Below are positions 3,121 to 29,570 of a DNA stretch of 29,570 nt, piece by piece. Each line of letters opens with the position of its first letter. The stretch's first letter is position 1. The position numbers were made by a program, and so were the translations under genes. The DNA lies in the IMG/VR virus record IMGVR_UViG_2778261297_000001, one strand, 5' to 3'. The notes beneath the pieces are model-generated. The model did not search any database, was not told where the DNA came from, and saw only the letters and a list, made by a program, of their open reading frames with translations. Origin of the DNA: a virus (taxonomy: Duplodnaviria; Heunggongvirae; Uroviricota; Caudoviricetes).

Positions 3121-3711
3121 ATGTCTCGAATTTTTGCTTACTGTCGGATATCAACGCTGGATCAGACCACCGAAAATCAACGCCGGGAAATCGAAAGTGC
3201 AGGTTTTAAAATCAAACCTCAGCAAATAATCGAAGAACACATTAGCGGCTCAGCAGCAACCAGTGAGCGTCCTGGTTTTAACCGGTTGCTTGCTCGCCTG
3301 AAATGTGGTGATCAATTGATTGTGACAAAACTGGATCGCCTTGGTTGTAATGCAATGGATATCAGGAAAACAGTGGAACAACTGACCGAAACAGGTATCA
3401 GAGTGCATTGCTTAGCATTGGGGGGCATTGACCTGACCAGTCCAACAGGAAAAATGATGATGCAAGTAATTTCAGCAGTCGCTGAATTTGAACGAGACCT
3501 TTTACTTGAACGCACTCATTCCGGGATAGTAAGAGCCCGGGGCGCAGGGAAACGTTTTGGTCGACCACCTGTGTTAAATGAAGAACAGAAACAGGTGGTA
3601 TTCGAACGAATTAAGTCAGGTGTAAGTATAAGTGCCATTGCCCGGGAATTCAAAACCTCGCGGCAAACCATTTTAAGAGCCAAAGCAAAACTTCAGACAC
3701 CTGACATATAA
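3121..3711 (+). CDS. pinQ: Serine recombinase / DNA invertase PinQ (196 aa)
   Basis: Resolvase-invertase family features: N-terminal catalytic serine context [10 protein letters not shown]-terminal HTH; recalled as Qin/Rac Pin protein. Confidence 0.85.
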
Positions 3712-3808
3712 AAAATAATCTCGGTGTGAGATGCTTTACGTCTTCCAAGCCACCTTCCTTGCCGTAAATGGAAAGATACATCTAATTATAGAATTTATAT
3801 GTTTTACC

Positions 3809-6798
<2,990 letters not shown>

Positions 6799-11088: not shown

Positions 11089-11403
11089 CTAACAACCCGT
11101 AATCGAGTTATCTGAACTGTTAATTTTTATGGTATACCGAGCCTCTGAACAGGGTCGCGTTTCTGGCAACAGCTCGTCCCCTTCACATAACCCGGCAGCA
11201 ACATCCAGGAAGACCTGTCTGATGCTCCTTCTGGCTGCTGCCTCATAAAACTCCAGCGCGGCACCTTCAACACGGTCCAGCGAGATGTCCAGGTCAAAAA
11301 TTTCACCGTCAAAGCGTTCTTTGTCCCGTAACGCTAAAGTTACCGTAACTTTATTCTCAAAATTGCGGATCCCTTTCACAATCAGTTCATATTTTTGAGT
11401 CAT
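11089..11403 (-). CDS. ydfR: YdfR-like protein (104 aa), function unknown, between holin and endolysin
   Basis: ORF MTQKYELIVKGIRNFENKVTVTLALRDKERFDGEIFDLD..; position inside lysis cassette. Confidence 0.65.
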   Translation of the reverse strand: MTQKYELIVKGIRNFENKVTVTLALRDKERFDGEIFDLDISLDRVEGAALEFYEAAARRSIRQVFLDVAAGLCEGDELLPETRPCSEARYTIKINSSDNSITGC

Positions 11404-19079: not shown

Positions 19080-20009
19080 TCAATCTTTTTTATCGGGATC
19101 AGGCTTCTTTTTAGGTAACTTCGGGGGCTTAACTTGCTGATGACTTTGCGTTCGGCGCGTAAGCCAGGGATGGTCAGCTTTAGGTTTAACATAGTATTTT
19201 GAGCGTAAATCAATACGGGCATTATCCACTCGTTCATGGACACTCTTTTCATCATCCAGTGGTATAGGCTCCGGGCCATCAACATACTTTTCCCAGCCCA
19301 GCGCTTTCCCGTCATACAGAACGTTAATTTCACCGTCAAAGTTCTCGCATACAGTAACAACCGAATGCCTAAGTCGATATCCCCGGCTCTCACTGCGTAC
19401 CTGAAACGCACTGCTTTTGTACTGGAAAGTGAGATTTTTAGACAGAACGCGCTTCGCCTGTAGGCTGAAGATATAACCCAGTTCCTCTTCAGAATGGTGC
19501 ACATCAAGATGAGCATTATCAGTAGTACGAGGCGACGTAGCGAACCGGTTGTTATAGGCTTCAATAAAAGTCGGCAACCATGCATTTGCTGTTTCAATAT
19601 CACTGATATTCTGAAGCCGCATTTCTTTGACCAGCCTGTCCTGTAGTGTCTGATTGGCGCGCTCTACCCGCCCTTTTGCCTGCGGGCTGTTGGCATGGAT
19701 TGGCTCGATGCCCAGTGTCTTTATCGCACGAGTGAACTGGGTCAGCTCACCTTCCCGCTCTGGGTTATTTACCCTGAATATACTGTGTCTATCAGAGTAG
19801 AGAGCGAGCGGTACGCCATGATCATTAAGGTAACCCCGGAGGGTTTCCATGTAAGCCCGGGTTGTTTCAGCAGGCACAAAACGCAACGCCATCAACGCAC
19901 TGGTGGCATCATCAATGAAAACGATCAGTGTACATCTGGGGCCTCGATTTTCAAACCAGTCATGAGGTGAGCCATCAATCTGGATCAGTTCACCGTAAGA
20001 TGGTTGATC
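19080..20009 (-). pseudogene. rve (DDE integrase-core) family transposase/integrase fragment, N-terminally truncated
   Basis: DDE signature ..IQIDGSPHDWF.., ..LALYSDRHSIF.., ..SPQAKGRVERANQTLQDRL..; reading frame extends upstream of annotated Met to a stop at 20010-20012 with no HTH domain; GC-richer than flanking prophage DNA. Confidence 0.7.
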
Positions 20010-21084: not shown

Positions 21085-23556
21085 ATGAGTAAAGTCTTTA
21101 TTTGCGCCGCTATTCCTGACGAACTGGCAACAAGGGAAGAAGGCGCTGTGGCTGTAGCCACAGCCATTGAAGCTGGCGACGAACGCCGTGCTCGAGCAAA
21201 ATTTCACTGGCAGTTCCTGGAACATTATCCGGCTGCTCAGGACTGCGCTTATAAATTTATTGTCTGCGAGGATAAACCTGGCATACCCCGCCCTGCCCTC
21301 GATTCATGGGATGCTGAATATATGCAGGAAAACCGCTGGGATGAGGAGTCTGCTTCTTTTGTCCCGGTTGAGACTGAATCCGATCCGATGAACGTCACTT
21401 TTGACAAGCTGGCCCCTGAAGTACAGAACGCTGTCATGGTTAAGTTCGACACATGTGAAAACATCACCGTTGATATGGTTATTAGCGCACAGGAATTGTT
21501 GCAGGAAGACATGGCAACATTCGACGGACATATCGTTGAAGCGTTGATGAAAATGCCAGAAGTTAACGCCATGTATCCGGAGCTTAAGTTGCACGCCATT
21601 GGGTGGGTTAAGCATAAATGTATTCCTGGTGCTAAATGGCCCGAAATTCAGGCAGAGATGCGCATCTGGAAAAAACGTCGCGAAGGTGAACGCAAGGAAA
21701 CCGGAAAATACACGTCTGTTGTTGATCTCGCCCGCGCCAGAACCAATCAACAGTACACTGAAAATTCAACAGGAAAAATCAGCCCGGTCATTGCTGCCAT
21801 TCATCGCGAATACAAGCAGACATGGAAAACACTGGATGACGAACTGGCCTACGCTCTCTGGCCTGGTGATGTGGATGCCGGAAACATTGACGGCAGCATC
21901 CATCGCTGGGCAAAAAAAGAAGTTATCGACAACGACCGCGAAGACTGGAAGCGTATCTCGGCATCAATGCGCAAACAGCCTGATGCCCTTCGCTACGACC
22001 GCCAGACTATTTTTGGCCTTGTCCGTGAGCGTCCGATCGACATTCACAAAGATCCCATAGCACTGAACAAATATATCTGCGAATACCTGACGACAAAGGG
22101 CGTGTTTGAGAATGAAGAAACAGACCTGGGCACTGTTGATGTTCTCCAGTCATCAGAAACACAAACTGATGCAGTGGAAACTGAGGTATCTGATATCCCA
22201 AAAAATGAAACCGCGCCGGAAGCTGAACCATCTGTAGAGCGTGAGGGGCCGTTCTATTTCCTCTTCGCAGATAAGGACGGAGAAAAATACGGTCGCGCAA
22301 ACAAACTTTCTGGTCTGGATAAGGCACTGGCTGCTGGCGCCACTGAAATCACAAAAGAAGAATATTTTGCCCGAAAAAATGGCACATACACGGGCTTACC
22401 GCAAAATGTAGATACCGCTGAAGATTCAGAACAACCAGAGCCGATAAAAGTTACCGCTGACGAAGTAAACAAAATTATGCAGGCAGCCAATATCAGCCAG
22501 CCTGACGCCGATAAGTTGCTTGCTGCATCACGTGGTGAATTTGTTGAAGGGATTAGTGACCCGAATGATCCGAAATGGGTTAAGGGGATCCAGACCCGCG
22601 ATTCTGTGAACCAGAACCAGCATGAATCGGAACGGAACTACCAAAAAGCGGAACAAAACAGCACAAATGCGTTACAAAACGAGCCAGAAACGAAACAGCC
22701 TGAACCAGTGGCGCAACTGGAAGTGGAAAAAGTCTGCACCGCCTGCGGTCAGACCGGCGGCGGCAACTGCCCTGATTGTGGCGCGGTGATGGGCGACGCA
22801 ACATACCAGGAAACATTCGATGAAGAGTATCAGGTTGAAGTTCAGGAAGATGATCTGGAGGAAATGGAAGGCGCTGAACATCCACACAAGGAGAACACTG
22901 GCGGCAATCAGCATCACAATAGCGATAATGAAACTGGCGAGACGGCAGATCACTCAATTAAGGTGAACGGTCATCACGAAATCACATCCACCAGCAGGAC
23001 GTGTGACCATCTAATGATCGACCTTGAAACCATGGGAAAAAATCCTGATGCCCCGATCATCTCAATAGGTGCAATATTTTTCGATCCGCAAACCGGAGAT
23101 ATGGGACCGGAATTTAGTAAGACTATCGATCTGGAAACTGCTGGCGGAGTCATTGATCGGGACACCATTAAATGGTGGCTTAAGCAATCACGCGAAGCGC
23201 AATCTGCCATTATGACCGATGAAATCCCGTTAGATGATGCACTGTTACAATTGCGGGAATTTATCGACGAAAACTCCGGTGAATTTTTTGTTCAGGTTTG
23301 GGGAAATGGAGCCAACTTCGACAACACGATTTTGCGCCGTTCATACGAACGGCAGGGGATCCCCTGCCCGTGGCGTTACTACAACGATCGCGATGTACGC
23401 ACAATCGTTGAGCTGGGGAAAGCCATAGACTTCGATGCCAGAACGGCTATTCCATTCGAAGGTGAGCGCCATAATGCACTTGATGACGCCCGTTACCAGG
23501 CAAAATACGTTTCAGTTATCTGGCAAAAACTGATCCCGAGTCAGGCTGATTCTTAA
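21085..23556 (+). CDS. RecE-like (exodeoxyribonuclease VIII-like N-terminal/middle region) protein with Zn ribbon and C-terminal DEDDh 3'-5' exonuclease domain, 823 aa
   Basis: Middle segment DADKLLAASRGEFVEGISDPNDPKWVKGIQTRD recalled from Rac RecE; CTACGQTGGGNCPDCG zinc ribbon; C-terminal motifs IDLETMG (Exo I), WGNGANFDNTIL (Exo II), HNALDDARYQ (Exo III). Confidence 0.8.
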   Translation: MSKVFICAAIPDELATREEGAVAVATAIEAGDERRARAKFHWQFLEHYPAAQDCAYKFIVCEDKPGIPRPALDSWDAEYMQENRWDEESASFVPVETESDPMNVTFDKLAPEVQNAVMVKFDTCENITVDMVISAQELLQEDMATFDGHIVEALMKMPEVNAMYPELKLHAIGWVKHKCIPGAKWPEIQAEMRIWKKRREGERKETGKYTSVVDLARARTNQQYTENSTGKISPVIAAIHREYKQTWKTLDDELAYALWPGDVDAGNIDGSIHRWAKKEVIDNDREDWKRISASMRKQPDALRYDRQTIFGLVRERPIDIHKDPIALNKYICEYLTTKGVFENEETDLGTVDVLQSSETQTDAVETEVSDIPKNETAPEAEPSVEREGPFYFLFADKDGEKYGRANKLSGLDKALAAGATEITKEEYFARKNGTYTGLPQNVDTAEDSEQPEPIKVTADEVNKIMQAANISQPDADKLLAASRGEFVEGISDPNDPKWVKGIQTRDSVNQNQHESERNYQKAEQNSTNALQNEPETKQPEPVAQLEVEKVCTACGQTGGGNCPDCGAVMGDATYQETFDEEYQVEVQEDDLEEMEGAEHPHKENTGGNQHHNSDNETGETADHSIKVNGHHEITSTSRTCDHLMIDLETMGKNPDAPIISIGAIFFDPQTGDMGPEFSKTIDLETAGGVIDRDTIKWWLKQSREAQSAIMTDEIPLDDALLQLREFIDENSGEFFVQVWGNGANFDNTILRRSYERQGIPCPWRYYNDRDVRTIVELGKAIDFDARTAIPFEGERHNALDDARYQAKYVSVIWQKLIPSQADS

Positions 23557-23628
23557 TGTTCAACTGTCGCCGGTTGTGACTGGTATTCTGCAACCGGCGC
23601 TCGTCTAATGTAAGAGATAAAGAAATCG

Positions 23629-23880
23629 ATGAGCGAAGTAATCATGATTGTCTCTCCCGGCAAATGGGTATCCGAAGAGCAGTTAATTGCGCTGAAAGGA
23701 ATAAAAAAAGGTACGTTAAAAAAGGCCCGGGAAAAATCGTTTATGGAAGGAAGGGAATATAAGCATGTCGCTCATGACGGTATGCCATGGGATAACAGCC
23801 CATGCTTTTACAACCTGGAAGAAATTGATCGCTGGATTGAGCGCCAGGCATCAGCGAGACCAAGACGTCATCTTACTTGA
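23629..23880 (+). CDS. Putative excisionase / Xis-like DNA-binding protein (83 aa)
   Basis: Small basic protein immediately upstream of integrase; contains GREY motif as in lambda Xis family; exact start uncertain. Confidence 0.55.
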   Translation: MSEVIMIVSPGKWVSEEQLIALKGIKKGTLKKAREKSFMEGREYKHVAHDGMPWDNSPCFYNLEEIDRWIERQASARPRRHLT

Positions 23881-23899
23881 CTAAAAGCCACACTAACTA

Positions 23900-25195
23900 A
23901 TGAGAGAAGTTGAAATGAAATATCCGACAGGCGTGGAAAACCATGGAGGGAAATTACGTATCTGGTTTGTTTATAAAGGCGTAAGAGTCAGGGAAAATCT
24001 GGGGGTTCCTGACACAGCAAAAAACAGGCGCGTTGCAGGTGAACTACGCGCCTCTGTTTGTTACGCAATAAAAACTGGTGTTTTCGACTATGCAAAACAG
24101 TTTCCCTCCTCACGCAATCTGGAAAAATTTGGTGAGGCCCGACAAGATTTAACCATAAAAGAACTGGCTGAAAAATTTCTGGCACTGAAAGAAACTGAAG
24201 TCGCAAAAACATCACTCAACACATACCGTGCCGTCATCAAAAATATCCTGAGCATAATCGGTGAAAAAAATCTTGCCTCATCGATTAATAAAGAAAAATT
24301 ACTGGAGGTTCGTAAAGAGCTACTGACTGGATACCAGATCCCCAAAAGTAACTATATTGTTACACAACCAGGGAGATCGGCTGTAACTGTAAATAATTAC
24401 ATGACAAATCTTAACGCCGTGTTCCAGTTTGGTGTTGATAACGGTTACTTGGCAGATAACCCGTTTAAGGGGATCTCGCCATTAAAGGAATCAAGAACCA
24501 TTCCGGATCCTCTTTCGCGGGAGGAATTCATCCGTCTTATCGATGCGTGCAGAAATCAGCAAGCCAAAAATTTATGGTGTGTTTCTGTTTATACTGGCGT
24601 TCGCCCTGGTGAGCTGTGTGCACTTGGATGGGAGGACATAGATCTGAAAAATGGAACAATGATGATCAGGAGAAATTTAGCAAAAGACCGTTTCACGGTA
24701 CCAAAAACACAGGCGGGAACCAATCGGGTCATTCATCTTATTAAGCCAGCAATCGACGCTCTCCGGAGTCAGATGACATTAACGAGACTGAGCAAAGAGC
24801 ATATCATTGATGTTCACCTCAGAGAGTATGGCAGAACAGAAAAACAAAAATGCACCTTTGTTTTTCAACCTGAAGTGTCAGCGAGAGTAAAAAATTATGG
24901 TGACCATTTTACCGTTGACTCAATAAGGCAGATGTGGGACGCAGCGATAAAACGTGCCGGACTCCGCCATCGAAAATCATATCAGTCGAGACATACTTAT
25001 GCCTGCTGGTCGCTGACAGCTGGTGCTAACCCGGCATTTATAGCAAACCAGATGGGCCATGCAGATGCGCAAATGGTATTTCAGGTATACGGAAAATGGA
25101 TGTCTGAAAACAATAATGCACAGGTAGCTTTGTTAAATACACAGTTAAGCGAGTTTGCCCCAACCATGCCCCATAACGAAGCAATGAAAAATTAA
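23900..25195 (+). CDS. intQ: Tyrosine site-specific integrase (lambda Int family), apparently intact, 426-431 aa
   Basis: Phage-integrase C-terminal catalytic region (..VYTGVRPGELCALGWEDIDL.., ..RHTYACWSL.., ..QVYGKWM..); 3' end faces att core at 25233; start may be internal Met at 23915. Confidence 0.9.
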   Translation: MREVEMKYPTGVENHGGKLRIWFVYKGVRVRENLGVPDTAKNRRVAGELRASVCYAIKTGVFDYAKQFPSSRNLEKFGEARQDLTIKELAEKFLALKETEVAKTSLNTYRAVIKNILSIIGEKNLASSINKEKLLEVRKELLTGYQIPKSNYIVTQPGRSAVTVNNYMTNLNAVFQFGVDNGYLADNPFKGISPLKESRTIPDPLSREEFIRLIDACRNQQAKNLWCVSVYTGVRPGELCALGWEDIDLKNGTMMIRRNLAKDRFTVPKTQAGTNRVIHLIKPAIDALRSQMTLTRLSKEHIIDVHLREYGRTEKQKCTFVFQPEVSARVKNYGDHFTVDSIRQMWDAAIKRAGLRHRKSYQSRHTYACWSLTAGANPAFIANQMGHADAQMVFQVYGKWMSENNNAQVALLNTQLSEFAPTMPHNEAMKN

Positions 25196-25214
25196 TTTAA
25201 TATTTATCAAATAG

Positions 25215-25325
25215 TTAACACGTATGGCTCTTGAAATCCATAAATTCAAGCGCAGTGCCCAGCCATCCCGATACTGCTGCTTTCACCAAATCCTTAGTGC
25301 TTCTTTCGTGTTTTTCTATTGTCAT
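25215..25325 (-). pseudogene. ydfJ: ydfJ 5' fragment (first 31 codons) running into prophage sequence
   Basis: Minus-strand translation MTIEKHERSTKDLVKAAVSGWLGTALEFMDF-KSHTC; the EFMDF codons coincide with the att core and continue as MDFQLYS.. at 1784. Confidence 0.6.
25233..25243. repeat. Prophage attachment core (att, integrase end), GAAATCCATAA
   Basis: Identical 11-mer to 1776-1786; 38 nt downstream of integrase stop. Confidence 0.5.
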
Positions 25326-25382
25326 AATGGTTATCTCTAAAAAAGAGGTAAGATGCGTACTACTTACTCGCCGTTATTGGTA

Positions 25383-26402
25383 TTATTCAGAAAAAGTGAG
25401 TAAGACTTTGCAGCAATGTTTTTGATCCTGTTCAAATAAACTAATGGCATCAGCAACATGCTGGAAATCAAACGTATGGGTAATTAATTTTTCTGGTTTA
25501 ATTAACCCTTTACTTAACCAGTCGATAACGATCGGGAATTTATTTGCATTTAAGCGTGAAGAGAAAATAGAGAGTTCTTTTCCGGTAATTCCTTGCTGAA
25601 TCACTTCAGACGGTTCACTGGAGAACCCCATCAATACAATACGTGCCGCTGGAGAAGCCAGCGTTACGGCCTCTTTCAGGATAGAAGGATGACAAGCCGC
25701 ATCGATAATTAATGTCGGCTTGATGCCTTTTTCAGTGAAAATCTCGCCAAGCGGTGTCTGGCTGTTATTAATCGCCCAGTCAGCCCCGCTCTCTTTCGCT
25801 TTTTCCAGTCGTTCATCAATGCGATCGGCAACAATCACATTTTTAACGTTATAGACGCCTTTTAATACCTGAACGATCGTCAGGCCGATTGGACCGGCAC
25901 CATAAACCAGAACGGTATCATTTTCAGTCGGTTGACCATGTCCGGTTACGTTAGCCGCAATGGTAAAAGGTTCGATCATTACCGCATATTGATCGGCCAC
26001 TGCTTCAGGAATTTTCCACGCATTTTTTGCCGGAACCACGGCATATTCACTGAAACCACCGTCAGCGTGCACACCTAATACAGCCAGTGTCGTACAAACG
26101 TTCGGTTTACCTATAGAGCACGGATAGCAATGCCCACAGCTGACCACCGGATCGACAGCAACACGTTCACCGACTCTGGCGCTTTCCACGCCTTCACCCA
26201 CTGCATCAATGACGCCAAAGAATTCATGACCAATGACGCGCGGATATTTCGCAAAAGGATTATGCCCACGATAAATATGGCTATCTGAACCACAAATTCC
26301 GGCAAGTTTCACTTTTACTCGTACTTCACCCGCTGACGGGGTGGGTATTTCACGTTCGACAATCGCCAGTTGATTCGGTTTTTCAATTAATATGCTTTTC
26401 AT
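25383..26402 (-). CDS. rspB: Zn-dependent alcohol/polyol dehydrogenase RspB (339 aa)
   Basis: MDR-family motifs (GHEFFG, GxGxxG NAD-binding); sequence recalled as RspB; start taken at MKSILIEKPN. Confidence 0.9.
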   Translation of the reverse strand: MKSILIEKPNQLAIVEREIPTPSAGEVRVKVKLAGICGSDSHIYRGHNPFAKYPRVIGHEFFGVIDAVGEGVESARVGERVAVDPVVSCGHCYPCSIGKPNVCTTLAVLGVHADGGFSEYAVVPAKNAWKIPEAVADQYAVMIEPFTIAANVTGHGQPTENDTVLVYGAGPIGLTIVQVLKGVYNVKNVIVADRIDERLEKAKESGADWAINNSQTPLGEIFTEKGIKPTLIIDAACHPSILKEAVTLASPAARIVLMGFSSEPSEVIQQGITGKELSIFSSRLNANKFPIVIDWLSKGLIKPEKLITHTFDFQHVADAISLFEQDQKHCCKVLLTFSE

Positions 26403-26413
26403 TATCTTACTCC

Positions 26414-27628
26414 TTACCAGTTCCACAGCGTGCCATCTTCCAGACGTGCGACTGGTAGATAAGCAGGTTCATAGGGATATTTCGCCGCCAGCTTTTCATC
26501 GAATTCGATACCAAGACCCGGTTTGTCTCCCGGATGCATATAGCCGTTATCGAAAGTCCAGTTGTGCGGGAAGACTTCGAGCATTTGTTCGGAATAACCC
26601 ATGTATTCCTGGACACCGAAATTGGGGACCCACAGATCAAAGTGCAGCGCCGCAGCCATGCAGACTGGTGACAAATCGGAAGGACCGTGTGAGCCAGTAC
26701 GTACCTGATACAGCGAAGCAAAATCGGCAATCCGGCGCATACCGGTAATTCCGCCTGCATGGGTCAGCGTGGTGCGGATATAATCGATGAGTTGCTCTTC
26801 AATCAGTTGTTTGCAGTCCCAGATGCTGTTGAAGACTTCACCCACTGCGATGGGTGTGACGGTATGTTGGCGAATGAGACGGAAGCATTCCTGGTTTTCC
26901 GCAGGCGTCGGGTCTTCCATCCAGAACATGCGATAATCTTCAATGCTTTTACCAAAGCGCGCCGCTTCAATAGGCGTTAAGCGATGGTGCATGTCATGCA
27001 GCAAATGTTCATTAAAACCAAACTTGTTACGTACCGCGTCAAACAATTTCGGCATGAAATCGAGGTATTTCTCCGTCGACCACAGCTGCTCTTCCGGCCA
27101 CTGTCCTTTGGTTGCGGGTTCATAAGCCAGACCTTTACCTTTCGACATGCCGTAGGTGGTTTTCATACCAGGGATTCCGCACTGCACGCGGATGGCTTTG
27201 AATCCAAGCTCTTGATGACGGGCATAATCATCCAGAGCTTCATCAATACTGTGACCGGTGGTATGGCAATAAACCATCACCCCTTCACGAGACGCGCCGC
27301 CGAGTAACTGGTAAAGCGGCATGTTGGCAGCTTTGGCTTTAATATCCCACAGCGCCATATCAACCGCTGAAATGGCCGACATCGTAACCGGACCGCGACG
27401 CCAGTAAGCACCTTTATAGAAAAACTGCCAGATATCTTCGATACGGTGCGCATCGCGACCAATAAGCTGCGGACAAAGGTGATCCTGCAAATAAGAGGCC
27501 ACGGAAAGCTCACGTCCATTGAGGGTGGCATCCCCAAGGCCCGTAATACCGTCCTCAGTGGTGATTTTTAATGTGACGAAATTACGCCCCGGACAGGTAA
27601 CAAAAACTTCAGCCTTTACGATCTTCAT
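26414..27628 (-). CDS. rspA: Starvation-sensing protein RspA, enolase-superfamily mannonate/galactonate dehydratase-like (404 aa)
   Basis: Sequence from [38 protein letters not shown].. recalled as RspA. Confidence 0.9.
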
Positions 27629-27833
27629 GTTCGATTCCTTACATCGCTTGTCGTGATGCATGAAATCTACGCAACTGAGCTACTACCATACAAGTATAAA
27701 GATCGAAAAAAGCCGGAGTGATCACAAAAAAAGGCGTATATTTGCGCTGTGAATGGTTGACAAAAGATGAAATAGAATACCTTTTGTCAGCTGACACTTC
27801 CTCTTATCTTATTGATAAAATGGATTTATGTTC

Positions 27834-28160
27834 CTACGTGCGCCCCCAGCCCGCAACAATGATCAACATGCCGCAAAGCGCAATCAACGCACCCGTCCAG
27901 TCATAAAGAGTCAGTTTCACGCCATCCACAACGCGCAGCCACATCAACGCCGTGCAGACATAAACGCCACCATAAGCCGCGTAAACACGCCCACTCGCCG
28001 CTGGATGCAACGTTAACAACCAGACAAACAGCGCCAGTGAAATCCCCGCCGGAAGCAACAGCCAGATACTGGCGTTTCGTTTTAACCACAACCAGGGCAG
28101 AAAGCATCCAATAATTTCACACAGCGCAGTAGCAAAAAATAGTAACGTTGTTTTAATCAT
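27834..28160 (-). CDS. ynfA: UPF0060 inner membrane protein YnfA (108 aa)
   Basis: Four predicted TM helices; sequence recalled as YnfA. Confidence 0.85.
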
Positions 28161-28294
28161 CTTTGTCTCTTATTGACATCATGTATAGTTATAGGGCGAC
28201 ATAATATCATCAATATAAACACCCTCCTGGTACGTTTTGCGTCCGCAGTGGATGGTGTAGAATCACCTTTAATCATTCATACAGGGAATGAATT

Positions 28295-28636
28295 ATGAAA
28301 ATCACTCTCAGCAAACGAATCGGCCTGCTCGCTATTCTGCTGCCTTGCGCACTGGCATTGAGCACAACTGTTCATGCCGAAACTAACAAACTGGTGATTG
28401 AGTCTGGCGACAGTGCACAAAGCCGCCAGCACGCCGCTATGGAAAAAGAGCAATGGAATGACACGCGCAATCTGCGCCAGAAAGTGAATAAACGCACTGA
28501 AAAAGAGTGGGATAAAGCCGACGCCGCTTTTGATAACCGCGATAAATGTGAGCAAAGCGCCAACATCAATGCCTACTGGGAGCCCAATACTTTGCGCTGC
28601 CTGGACCGTCGAACTGGCCGCGTTATTACCCCCTAA
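28295..28636 (+). CDS. ynfB: Secreted UPF0482 protein YnfB (113 aa)
   Basis: N-terminal signal peptide; sequence recalled as YnfB. Confidence 0.85.
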
Positions 28637-28670
28637 CCTGTTATTGATTTAAGGAATGTAAGGACACGTT

Positions 28671-29231
28671 ATGCCAAGCGCCCACAGTGTTAAGCTACGC
28701 CCGCTGGAGCGTGAAGATTTACGCTATGTACATCAACTCGACAATAACGCCAGTGTGATGCGTTACTGGTTTGAGGAACCCTACGAAGCCTTTGTTGAAC
28801 TCTCTGATCTGTATGATAAGCATATTCACGATCAGAGCGAACGGCGCTTTGTGGTGGAATGTGACGGCGAAAAAGCCGGTCTGGTGGAGCTGGTGGAAAT
28901 TAACCATGTTCATCGCCGCGCAGAATTTCAGATAATTATCTCCCCGGAGTATCAGGGGAAAGGTCTGGCAACCCGTGCCGCCAAATTAGCAATGGACTAT
29001 GGCTTTACCGTTCTCAATCTCTATAAGCTGTATCTGATCGTTGATAAAGAGAATGAAAAAGCGATTCACATTTACCGCAAGCTTGGCTTTTCGGTTGAAG
29101 GTGAATTGATGCACGAGTTCTTTATTAATGGTCAATATCGTAATGCCATTCGCATGTGTATATTCCAGCATCAGTATCTGGCAGAGCACAAAACACCGGG
29201 TCAGACTCTCCTGAAGCCGACCGCACAATAG
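28671..29231 (+). CDS. speG: Spermidine N1-acetyltransferase SpeG (186 aa)
   Basis: GNAT acetyltransferase motifs; sequence recalled as SpeG; stop codon TAG directly abuts IS1 terminus. Confidence 0.9.
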
Positions 29232-29570
29232 GGTGATGCTGCCAACTTACTGATTTAGTGTATGATGGTGTTTTTGAGGTGCTCCAGTGGCTTCTGTTTC
29301 TATCAGCTGTCCCTCCTGTTCAGCTACTGACGGGGTGGTGCGTAACGGCAAAAGCACCGCCGGACATCAGCGCTATCTCTGCTCTCACTGCCGTAAAACA
29401 TGGCAACTGCAGTTCACTTACACCGCTTCTCAACCCGGTACGCACCAGAAAATCATTGATATGGCCATGAATGGCGTTGGATGCCGGGCAACAGCCCGCA
29501 TTATGGGCGTTGGCCTCAACACGATTTTACGTCACTTAAAAAACTCAGGCCGCAGTCGGTAACCTCGCGC
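29232..29570 (+). mobile_element. IS1: IS1 insertion sequence, partial (IRL-proximal 339 bp; truncated by window edge)
   Basis: Begins GGTGATGCTGCCAACTTACTGAT; exact reverse complement of 1-339. Confidence 0.95.
29287..29562 (+). CDS. insA: IS1 InsA protein (91 aa)
   Basis: Identical translation to 9-284. Confidence 0.95.

Follow-up and report, generated by a model that had tools for sequence, protein, structure and literature searches.

IS1 duplicates 8 or 9 bp of its target on insertion and prefers AT-rich targets (PMC5009759, PMC10359306). For the IS1A and IS1E copies of K-12, both insAB′ transcription and transposition increase with read-through from upstream and decrease with a terminator just ahead of the element (PMC12428005); the title of a study cited in that work, by Machida et al. 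(1983), has read-through repressing IS1 cointegration, so that read-through may act on IS1 mobility in either direction. The ynfB-speG operon and its promoter have been described, together with the case of EIEC HN280, in which the promoter is lost to an IS2 and the level of speG mRNA is down 5-fold (PMC4156367). RNA-seq has further placed speG-ynfC among 165 convergent MG1655 gene pairs with overlapping transcripts (PMC12288877).

Here, we analyze an IS1 copy that lies where speG and ynfC meet. It was found at the end of the window, by which we mean the whole stretch of 29,570 nucleotides of DNA under study, and was compared with IS1-bearing and IS1-free Escherichia coli genomes.

RESULTS

speG and the left end of IS1

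E. coli EC09 (NZ_CM169492.1; human gut, Spain) was used to read past the window end: the two differ at 1 of 29,570 bases (position 11273), and over 24.9 kb the window aligns to EC09 in one piece at 100.0% identity. A second genome with the window's junction, 1368KP (Czech Republic), showed 1 mismatch in the 4,471 bases compared. The IS1-free references were ER1709 (K-12-type) and EA7, the nearest IS1-free relative (99.9% over 24.9 kb).

The first gene of the ynfB-speG operon, ynfB, is an open reading frame at 28295..28636 (+), annotated as ynfB (DUF1283) at the matching coordinates of EC09. It is followed by speG, encoding spermidine N1-acetyltransferase, an intact open reading frame of 186 amino acids at 28671..29231 (+) with a native TAG stop at 29229-29231. 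In a profile search, the product matched the NCBIfam equivalog NF011709 over residues 1-186 of 186 (406.4 bits; cut-off, 218), and the translation has no amino-acid difference from K-12-type SpeG; in annotation, speG of the window is to be called intact. TAG was the stop codon in all 12 of the speG 3′ ends examined, IS1-bearing and IS1-free alike.

The IS1 left end, GGTGATGCTGCC, begins at 29232, directly after the speG TAG (gap, 0 bp), and the junction reads ...CCGACCGCACAATAG|GGTGATGCTGCCAACTTACTGATTTAGTG... An earlier note on this DNA had placed the stop at 29229-29231, the IS1 end from 29232 and a GGG run at 29231-29233, and these coordinates are exact to the base. From here to the window end (29232..29570, +), the sequence is an IS1A-type insertion sequence co-oriented with speG, entered from its IRL end: it equals bases 1-339 of the 768-bp IS1 that is complete in EC09, the window end at 29570 falling inside the element. 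The left inverted repeat, GGTGATGCTGCCAACTTACTGAT, starts at 29232 and matches the right one of EC09 and 1368KP, GGTAATGACTCCAACTTATTGAT, at 18 of the first 23 positions, the terminal inverted repeats (GGTGATGCTGCC... and GGTAATGACTCC...) being imperfect and ∼23 bp long. The open reading frame of insA, which encodes the IS1 repressor and the N-terminal part of the transposase, lies at 29287..29562 (+; 91 amino acids, GTG start) and begins 55 nt past the speG stop. Near its end we located the A6C −1 frameshift motif TTAAAAAAC (29536..29544, +), which joins insA to insB′ (PMC12428005). InsA scored 41 bits against the NCBIfam IS1/IS1595 zinc-binding domain (cut-off, 28) and 91.3 bits against the IS1 transposase model NF033558, a value under the cut-off of 100 because only 81 of the 199 profile positions (1-81) are covered. 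The EC09 annotation at this site is an IS1-like element IS1A family transposase with programmed frameshift.

A promoter consensus scan of EC09 3500-5700 returned a sole + strand promoter-like site, which lies within the IRL and is directed inward (CTGCCA, 16-nt spacer, TATGAT; 29239..29266, +; EC09 L002 4140-4167). This is where IS1's own inward promoter is expected, and the site is a candidate for that promoter. The same scan found no outward hybrid promoter across either IS1 junction. An outward promoter made of IS1 end and flank was therefore rejected as a candidate, and antisense transcription of speG or ynfC from a new hybrid promoter of this kind appears, by sequence, unlikely.

The filled and the empty site

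In ER1709 and EA7, the empty site reads ...CCGACCGCACAATAG CA TTA ATAATAATCGATCG... The TTA found 2 bases past the speG TAG is the ynfC stop (TAA) on the opposite strand, so that speG and ynfC stand tail to tail with a 2-bp gap. All eight IS1-free speG 3′ ends examined read CAATAG and then CATTAATAA, and CATTAATAATAA follows the TAG in the 8 of 12 loci without IS1 at the site.

The right IS1 end, its flank and ynfC lie outside the window and are inferred from EC09 and 1368KP. In both of these genomes the IS1 is exactly 768 bp long (L001/L002 4133..4900), running from GGTGATG... to ...CATTACC, and is followed by CACAATAG CA TTA... and then by full-length ynfC. The same 8 bp, CACAATAG, precede the element at 29224..29231 in the window, their last three bases being the speG stop; these are the left copy of an 8-bp target-site duplication whose right copy lies beyond the window end. 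CACAATAG stands on both IS1 flanks in EC09, in 1368KP and in a further strain, GF60. Removing IS1 and one copy of CACAATAG in silico yielded the K-12-type site with 0 mismatches in 164 bases. YnfC of the filled site differs from the K-12-type protein by one residue, V192I, distant from the junction. The insertion shifts the native sequence downstream of speG by 776 bp and widens the speG-ynfC spacing from 2 bp to 778 bp. The comparison with IS1-free speG that the earlier note had called for thus gave a divided answer: the native TAG is unchanged, but the native bases downstream of it are not kept.

The 3′ region of speG

At the empty site, speG has no intergenic 3′ region, the sequence downstream of it being ynfC coding sequence in reverse, and a consensus scan found no + strand terminator after speG. 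Folding of the empty site gave a 9-pair hairpin, AAACCCGUU-CGAC-GGCGGGUUU, 41-62 nt past the speG stop and inside the ynfC coding sequence; the 80-nt stretch that contains it has a z score of −2.0, and the U run of the hairpin is mostly taken up by the stem. This weak to modest hairpin inside ynfC is the sole candidate for a speG terminator, and we propose it as a candidate only. A dedicated intergenic terminator was rejected, given that there is no intergenic region, that the scan was negative and that the weak hairpin lies within ynfC. In a full-text literature search for published data on the 3′ ends or terminators of speG, nothing came up beyond the excludon list that reports the MG1655 overlap; that overlap accords with transcription continuing into the partner gene, not with tight termination. 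Accordingly, the earlier suggestion that the native terminator and 3′ untranslated region of speG had been displaced stands in part: the 3′ sequence has been moved by 776 bp, but a terminator is not established and there was no intergenic 3′ region to displace.

Recurrence, rarity and target choice

The most AT-rich 30-mer of the 1,274-bp speG-ynfC span (80% AT) overlaps the IS1 target, and an 8-bp duplication can spare both stop codons from 11 start positions only, the observed one being the leftmost. In GF60 (L005 3125-3908), the identical 8 bp, CACAATAG, are occupied by an oppositely oriented IS1 that differs from the EC09 copy at 2 bases and represents a separate, independent event at that base pair. 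In PT62 (L006 824-1609) and LP5-1, a divergent IS1 with 41 differences lies 23 bp downstream, flanked by a 9-bp duplication, GTATTTTTG, and replaces the YnfC C terminus (...KNTIDYY becomes ...KNTVMTPTY). Other IS1 copies within the same 2 kb were found at two positions in ynfC, once more in ynfC together with a deletion to ynfE/F, at two positions inside speG, and upstream of speG. The AT-rich speG/ynfC spot is a local IS1 target.

The two positions inside the speG coding sequence are those of K71-77 (L010) and of P30_L1_05.20 (L015; also ET734). These insertions have knocked out speG naturally in clinical and environmental E. coli, which recalls the loss of speG in Shigella.

Of 5,426 complete E. 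coli genomes, two, EC09 and 1368KP, have the window's exact junction, and a pattern covering both IS1 orientations found no such junction in other species among 185,579 species-representative genomes. A metagenome scan returned one contig with the junction, OBVX01001744.1 (L013), which is 99.7% identical to window positions 22745-29322. It differs there by 11 mismatches and one gap, which points either to a slightly different genetic background for the allele or to a contig that represents a multistrain consensus. The carrier strains have ∼35 to 40 or more IS1 places per chromosome.

Neighboring features of the window

The window begins as it ends: positions 1-339 and 29232-29570 hold the same 339 IS1 bases in inverted orientation, with their IRL/insA ends facing inward. 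Both copies stop at IS1 base 339, in the manner of a short-read contig that breaks off within a repeat. Inverted IS1A copies thus lie on either side of the 28.9-kb segment, an arrangement that lends itself to inversion and has the look of a composite transposon. The left IS1 (boundary at 339/340; EC09 L014 1995-2762) is identical in sequence to the right one and has no target duplication, its flanks being ...CACACATCG and CAATTCTTG...; its neighbors are a truncated gene of the mannitol dehydrogenase family on one side and a truncated hypothetical gene and ydfJ on the other. Since it lacks a duplication and lies between truncated genes, the left copy marks an IS1-associated deletion or rearrangement.

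Between ydfJ and rspB, at ∼2389-25195, the window carries a Qin-like defective prophage with pinQ, nohA, a terminase, cspI, rrrQ, essD, relBE, hokD, dicB and an integrase (23915-25195). The same region contains an ISEsa1 transposase fragment (19350-19988), a truncated portal gene and a truncated tail fibre assembly gene. The single base that distinguishes the window from EC09, a C in the window and a T in EC09 at 11273, lies inside the YdfR-family gene of this prophage. Beyond the other end, 1368KP (L001 6233-8261) has a second IS1A, in opposite orientation, that splits ynfE ∼2.2 kb past the copy between speG and ynfC; no such element is present in EC09.

DISCUSSION

In this study, we used the comparison of filled and empty sites to explain how an IS1 end came to lie against the stop codon of speG. 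Very probably, the junction arose by one simple transposition of a 768-bp IS1A into the AT-rich speG/ynfC junction, with duplication of the 8 bp CACAATAG and with both genes left intact. This is an ordinary strain-specific IS1 insertion polymorphism, already present in the RefSeq genomes EC09 and 1368KP, where the transposase is annotated. The IS end abuts the stop because the 8-bp duplication and the stop codon end on the same base; the adjacency is a consequence of the landing site and no statistical feature. Both coding sequences are unchanged because the 8 duplicated bases are the last 8 of speG, native TAG included: the stop of speG is supplied by the left copy of CACAATAG, and that of ynfC is kept 2 bp past the right copy. 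The AT content of this stretch, the highest in the locus, probably made it a target, and the insertion probably persists because no gene is broken.

Transcripts of ynfB-speG would run straight into the IRL and insA, as the genes and the element are co-oriented and nothing lies between the stop and the IRL, and a joint ynfB-speG-insA transcript is expected from the position of the insA start, 55 nt past the stop. IS1 is classically polar, and on this basis speG transcripts would probably end within IS1, in its largely untranslated insB region, short of ynfC. The 3′ end of speG mRNA would then be lengthened and the hairpin candidate lost from it, and the natural antisense overlap between speG and ynfC would be reduced or lost in both directions. 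Read-through from the speG promoter may, in turn, add to the insA/insAB′ transcription of this IS1 copy. Changed speG expression is possible, and since the SpeG protein is unchanged, we expect no more than a quantitative effect on the level of speG mRNA.

The earlier note had read the junction differently, proposing that the final G of the stop codon may be contributed by the insertion and that the junction is ambiguous by one base. Under such an explanation, the last base of the native stop would have been lost and the G of TAG would be the first base of IS1; what speaks for it is only the GGG run at 29231-29233, in which the terminal G of IS1 could complete a TA to TAG. This possibility is negligible, and a hybrid stop codon was rejected by the empty-site comparison and the in silico excision. 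TAG is native in every locus examined, all 12 of them, so that the G belongs to target DNA, within CACAATAG; the IS1 measures exactly 768 bp from 29232, the 8-bp duplication holds the whole TAG, and excision restores the reference; and GF60, in which the IS1 is inverted, has CACAATAG on both flanks too. Nor does the ambiguity survive: with the junction read one base over, the flanks no longer carry a matching duplication, and excision would fail to recreate the empty site. An IS end at a stop codon thus need not mean a hybrid stop, given that a target duplication can carry the native one. Equally negligible is an assembly artefact in which a contig end was misjoined to a repeat: both window ends do lie inside a multicopy repeat, yet two chromosome-level assemblies, each from another country, and, independently of them, a metagenome contig all contain the identical junction in continuous alignment. 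Somewhat more weight, although it is still very unlikely, can be given to the idea that this IS1 marks the boundary of a deletion, an inversion or a composite transposon in the source genome, with ynfC not following it. The identical, inverted 339-bp IS1 stubs at the window ends, the lack of a target duplication at the left IS1 of EC09 and the IS1-associated deletions of this region in other strains would all accord with such a boundary. Against it stand the single difference in 29,570 bases between the window and EC09 and the fact that the right IS1 of EC09 and 1368KP has an intact duplication with ynfC next to it; because the duplication is intact, recombination through the right copy is disfavored.

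The remaining alternatives accept the transposition and ask whether selection has acted on it. We consider it unlikely that the insertion was selected for uncoupling the speG-ynfC overlap or for altering the level of speG, by analogy with the pathoadaptive silencing of speG in Shigella and EIEC HN280. The same 8 bp have been struck twice independently, in both orientations, with a third insertion 23 bp off; a transcriptional overlap of the two genes is reported for MG1655; and IS-mediated down-regulation of speG has a documented phenotype (PMC4156367). However, few genomes have the junction (2 of 5,426 complete ones and one inverted case), many neutral insertions are to be expected in carriers with ∼35 to 40 or more IS1 places per chromosome, and the AT-richness and harmlessness of the site suffice to account for its recurrence. 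Quite unlikely, too, is the broader proposal that the speG/ynfC junction is a true IS1 hot spot at which insertions are kept by selection, each splitting the interference pair, so that speG and/or ynfC levels change, and putting insA/insAB′ under the polyamine-responsive ynfB-speG promoter. If this were true, the transposition activity of this IS1 copy would be tied to polyamine physiology. For studies of speG-ynfC interference or of how context governs IS1 activity, EC09 and GF60 may be useful: between them, these strains naturally carry IS1 in both orientations at one base pair within a reported convergent-overlap pair.

Set beside the systems described to date, a simple IS1A transposition at the end of speG is most readily placed among the chromosomal IS1 copies of E. 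coli (IS1A/IS1E type), with which it shares the 768-bp length, the imperfect inverted repeats, insA with its A6C motif, the 8-bp duplication and the AT-rich target. There is no difference in kind; only the position stands out, in that the duplication ends on a stop codon. Neither gene is damaged because the duplication ends exactly at the stop, in the 2-bp gap of two convergent genes. With the silencing of speG in Shigella and EIEC HN280, the locus has in common that the same operon was struck by an insertion sequence. There, however, destruction of the promoter or of the gene is accompanied by a fall in N-acetylspermidine, whereas the window allele retains an intact promoter and coding sequence and has only its 3′ flank exchanged. 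The IS1 knock-outs K71-77 and P30_L1_05.20 likewise differ from the window allele, in which speG is intact. Finally, the empty site has the makeup of a convergent excludon (PMC12288877), with convergent genes whose stops lie 2 bp apart and whose transcripts are reported to overlap in MG1655; in the window allele, by contrast, the insertion has placed 776 bp between speG and ynfC.
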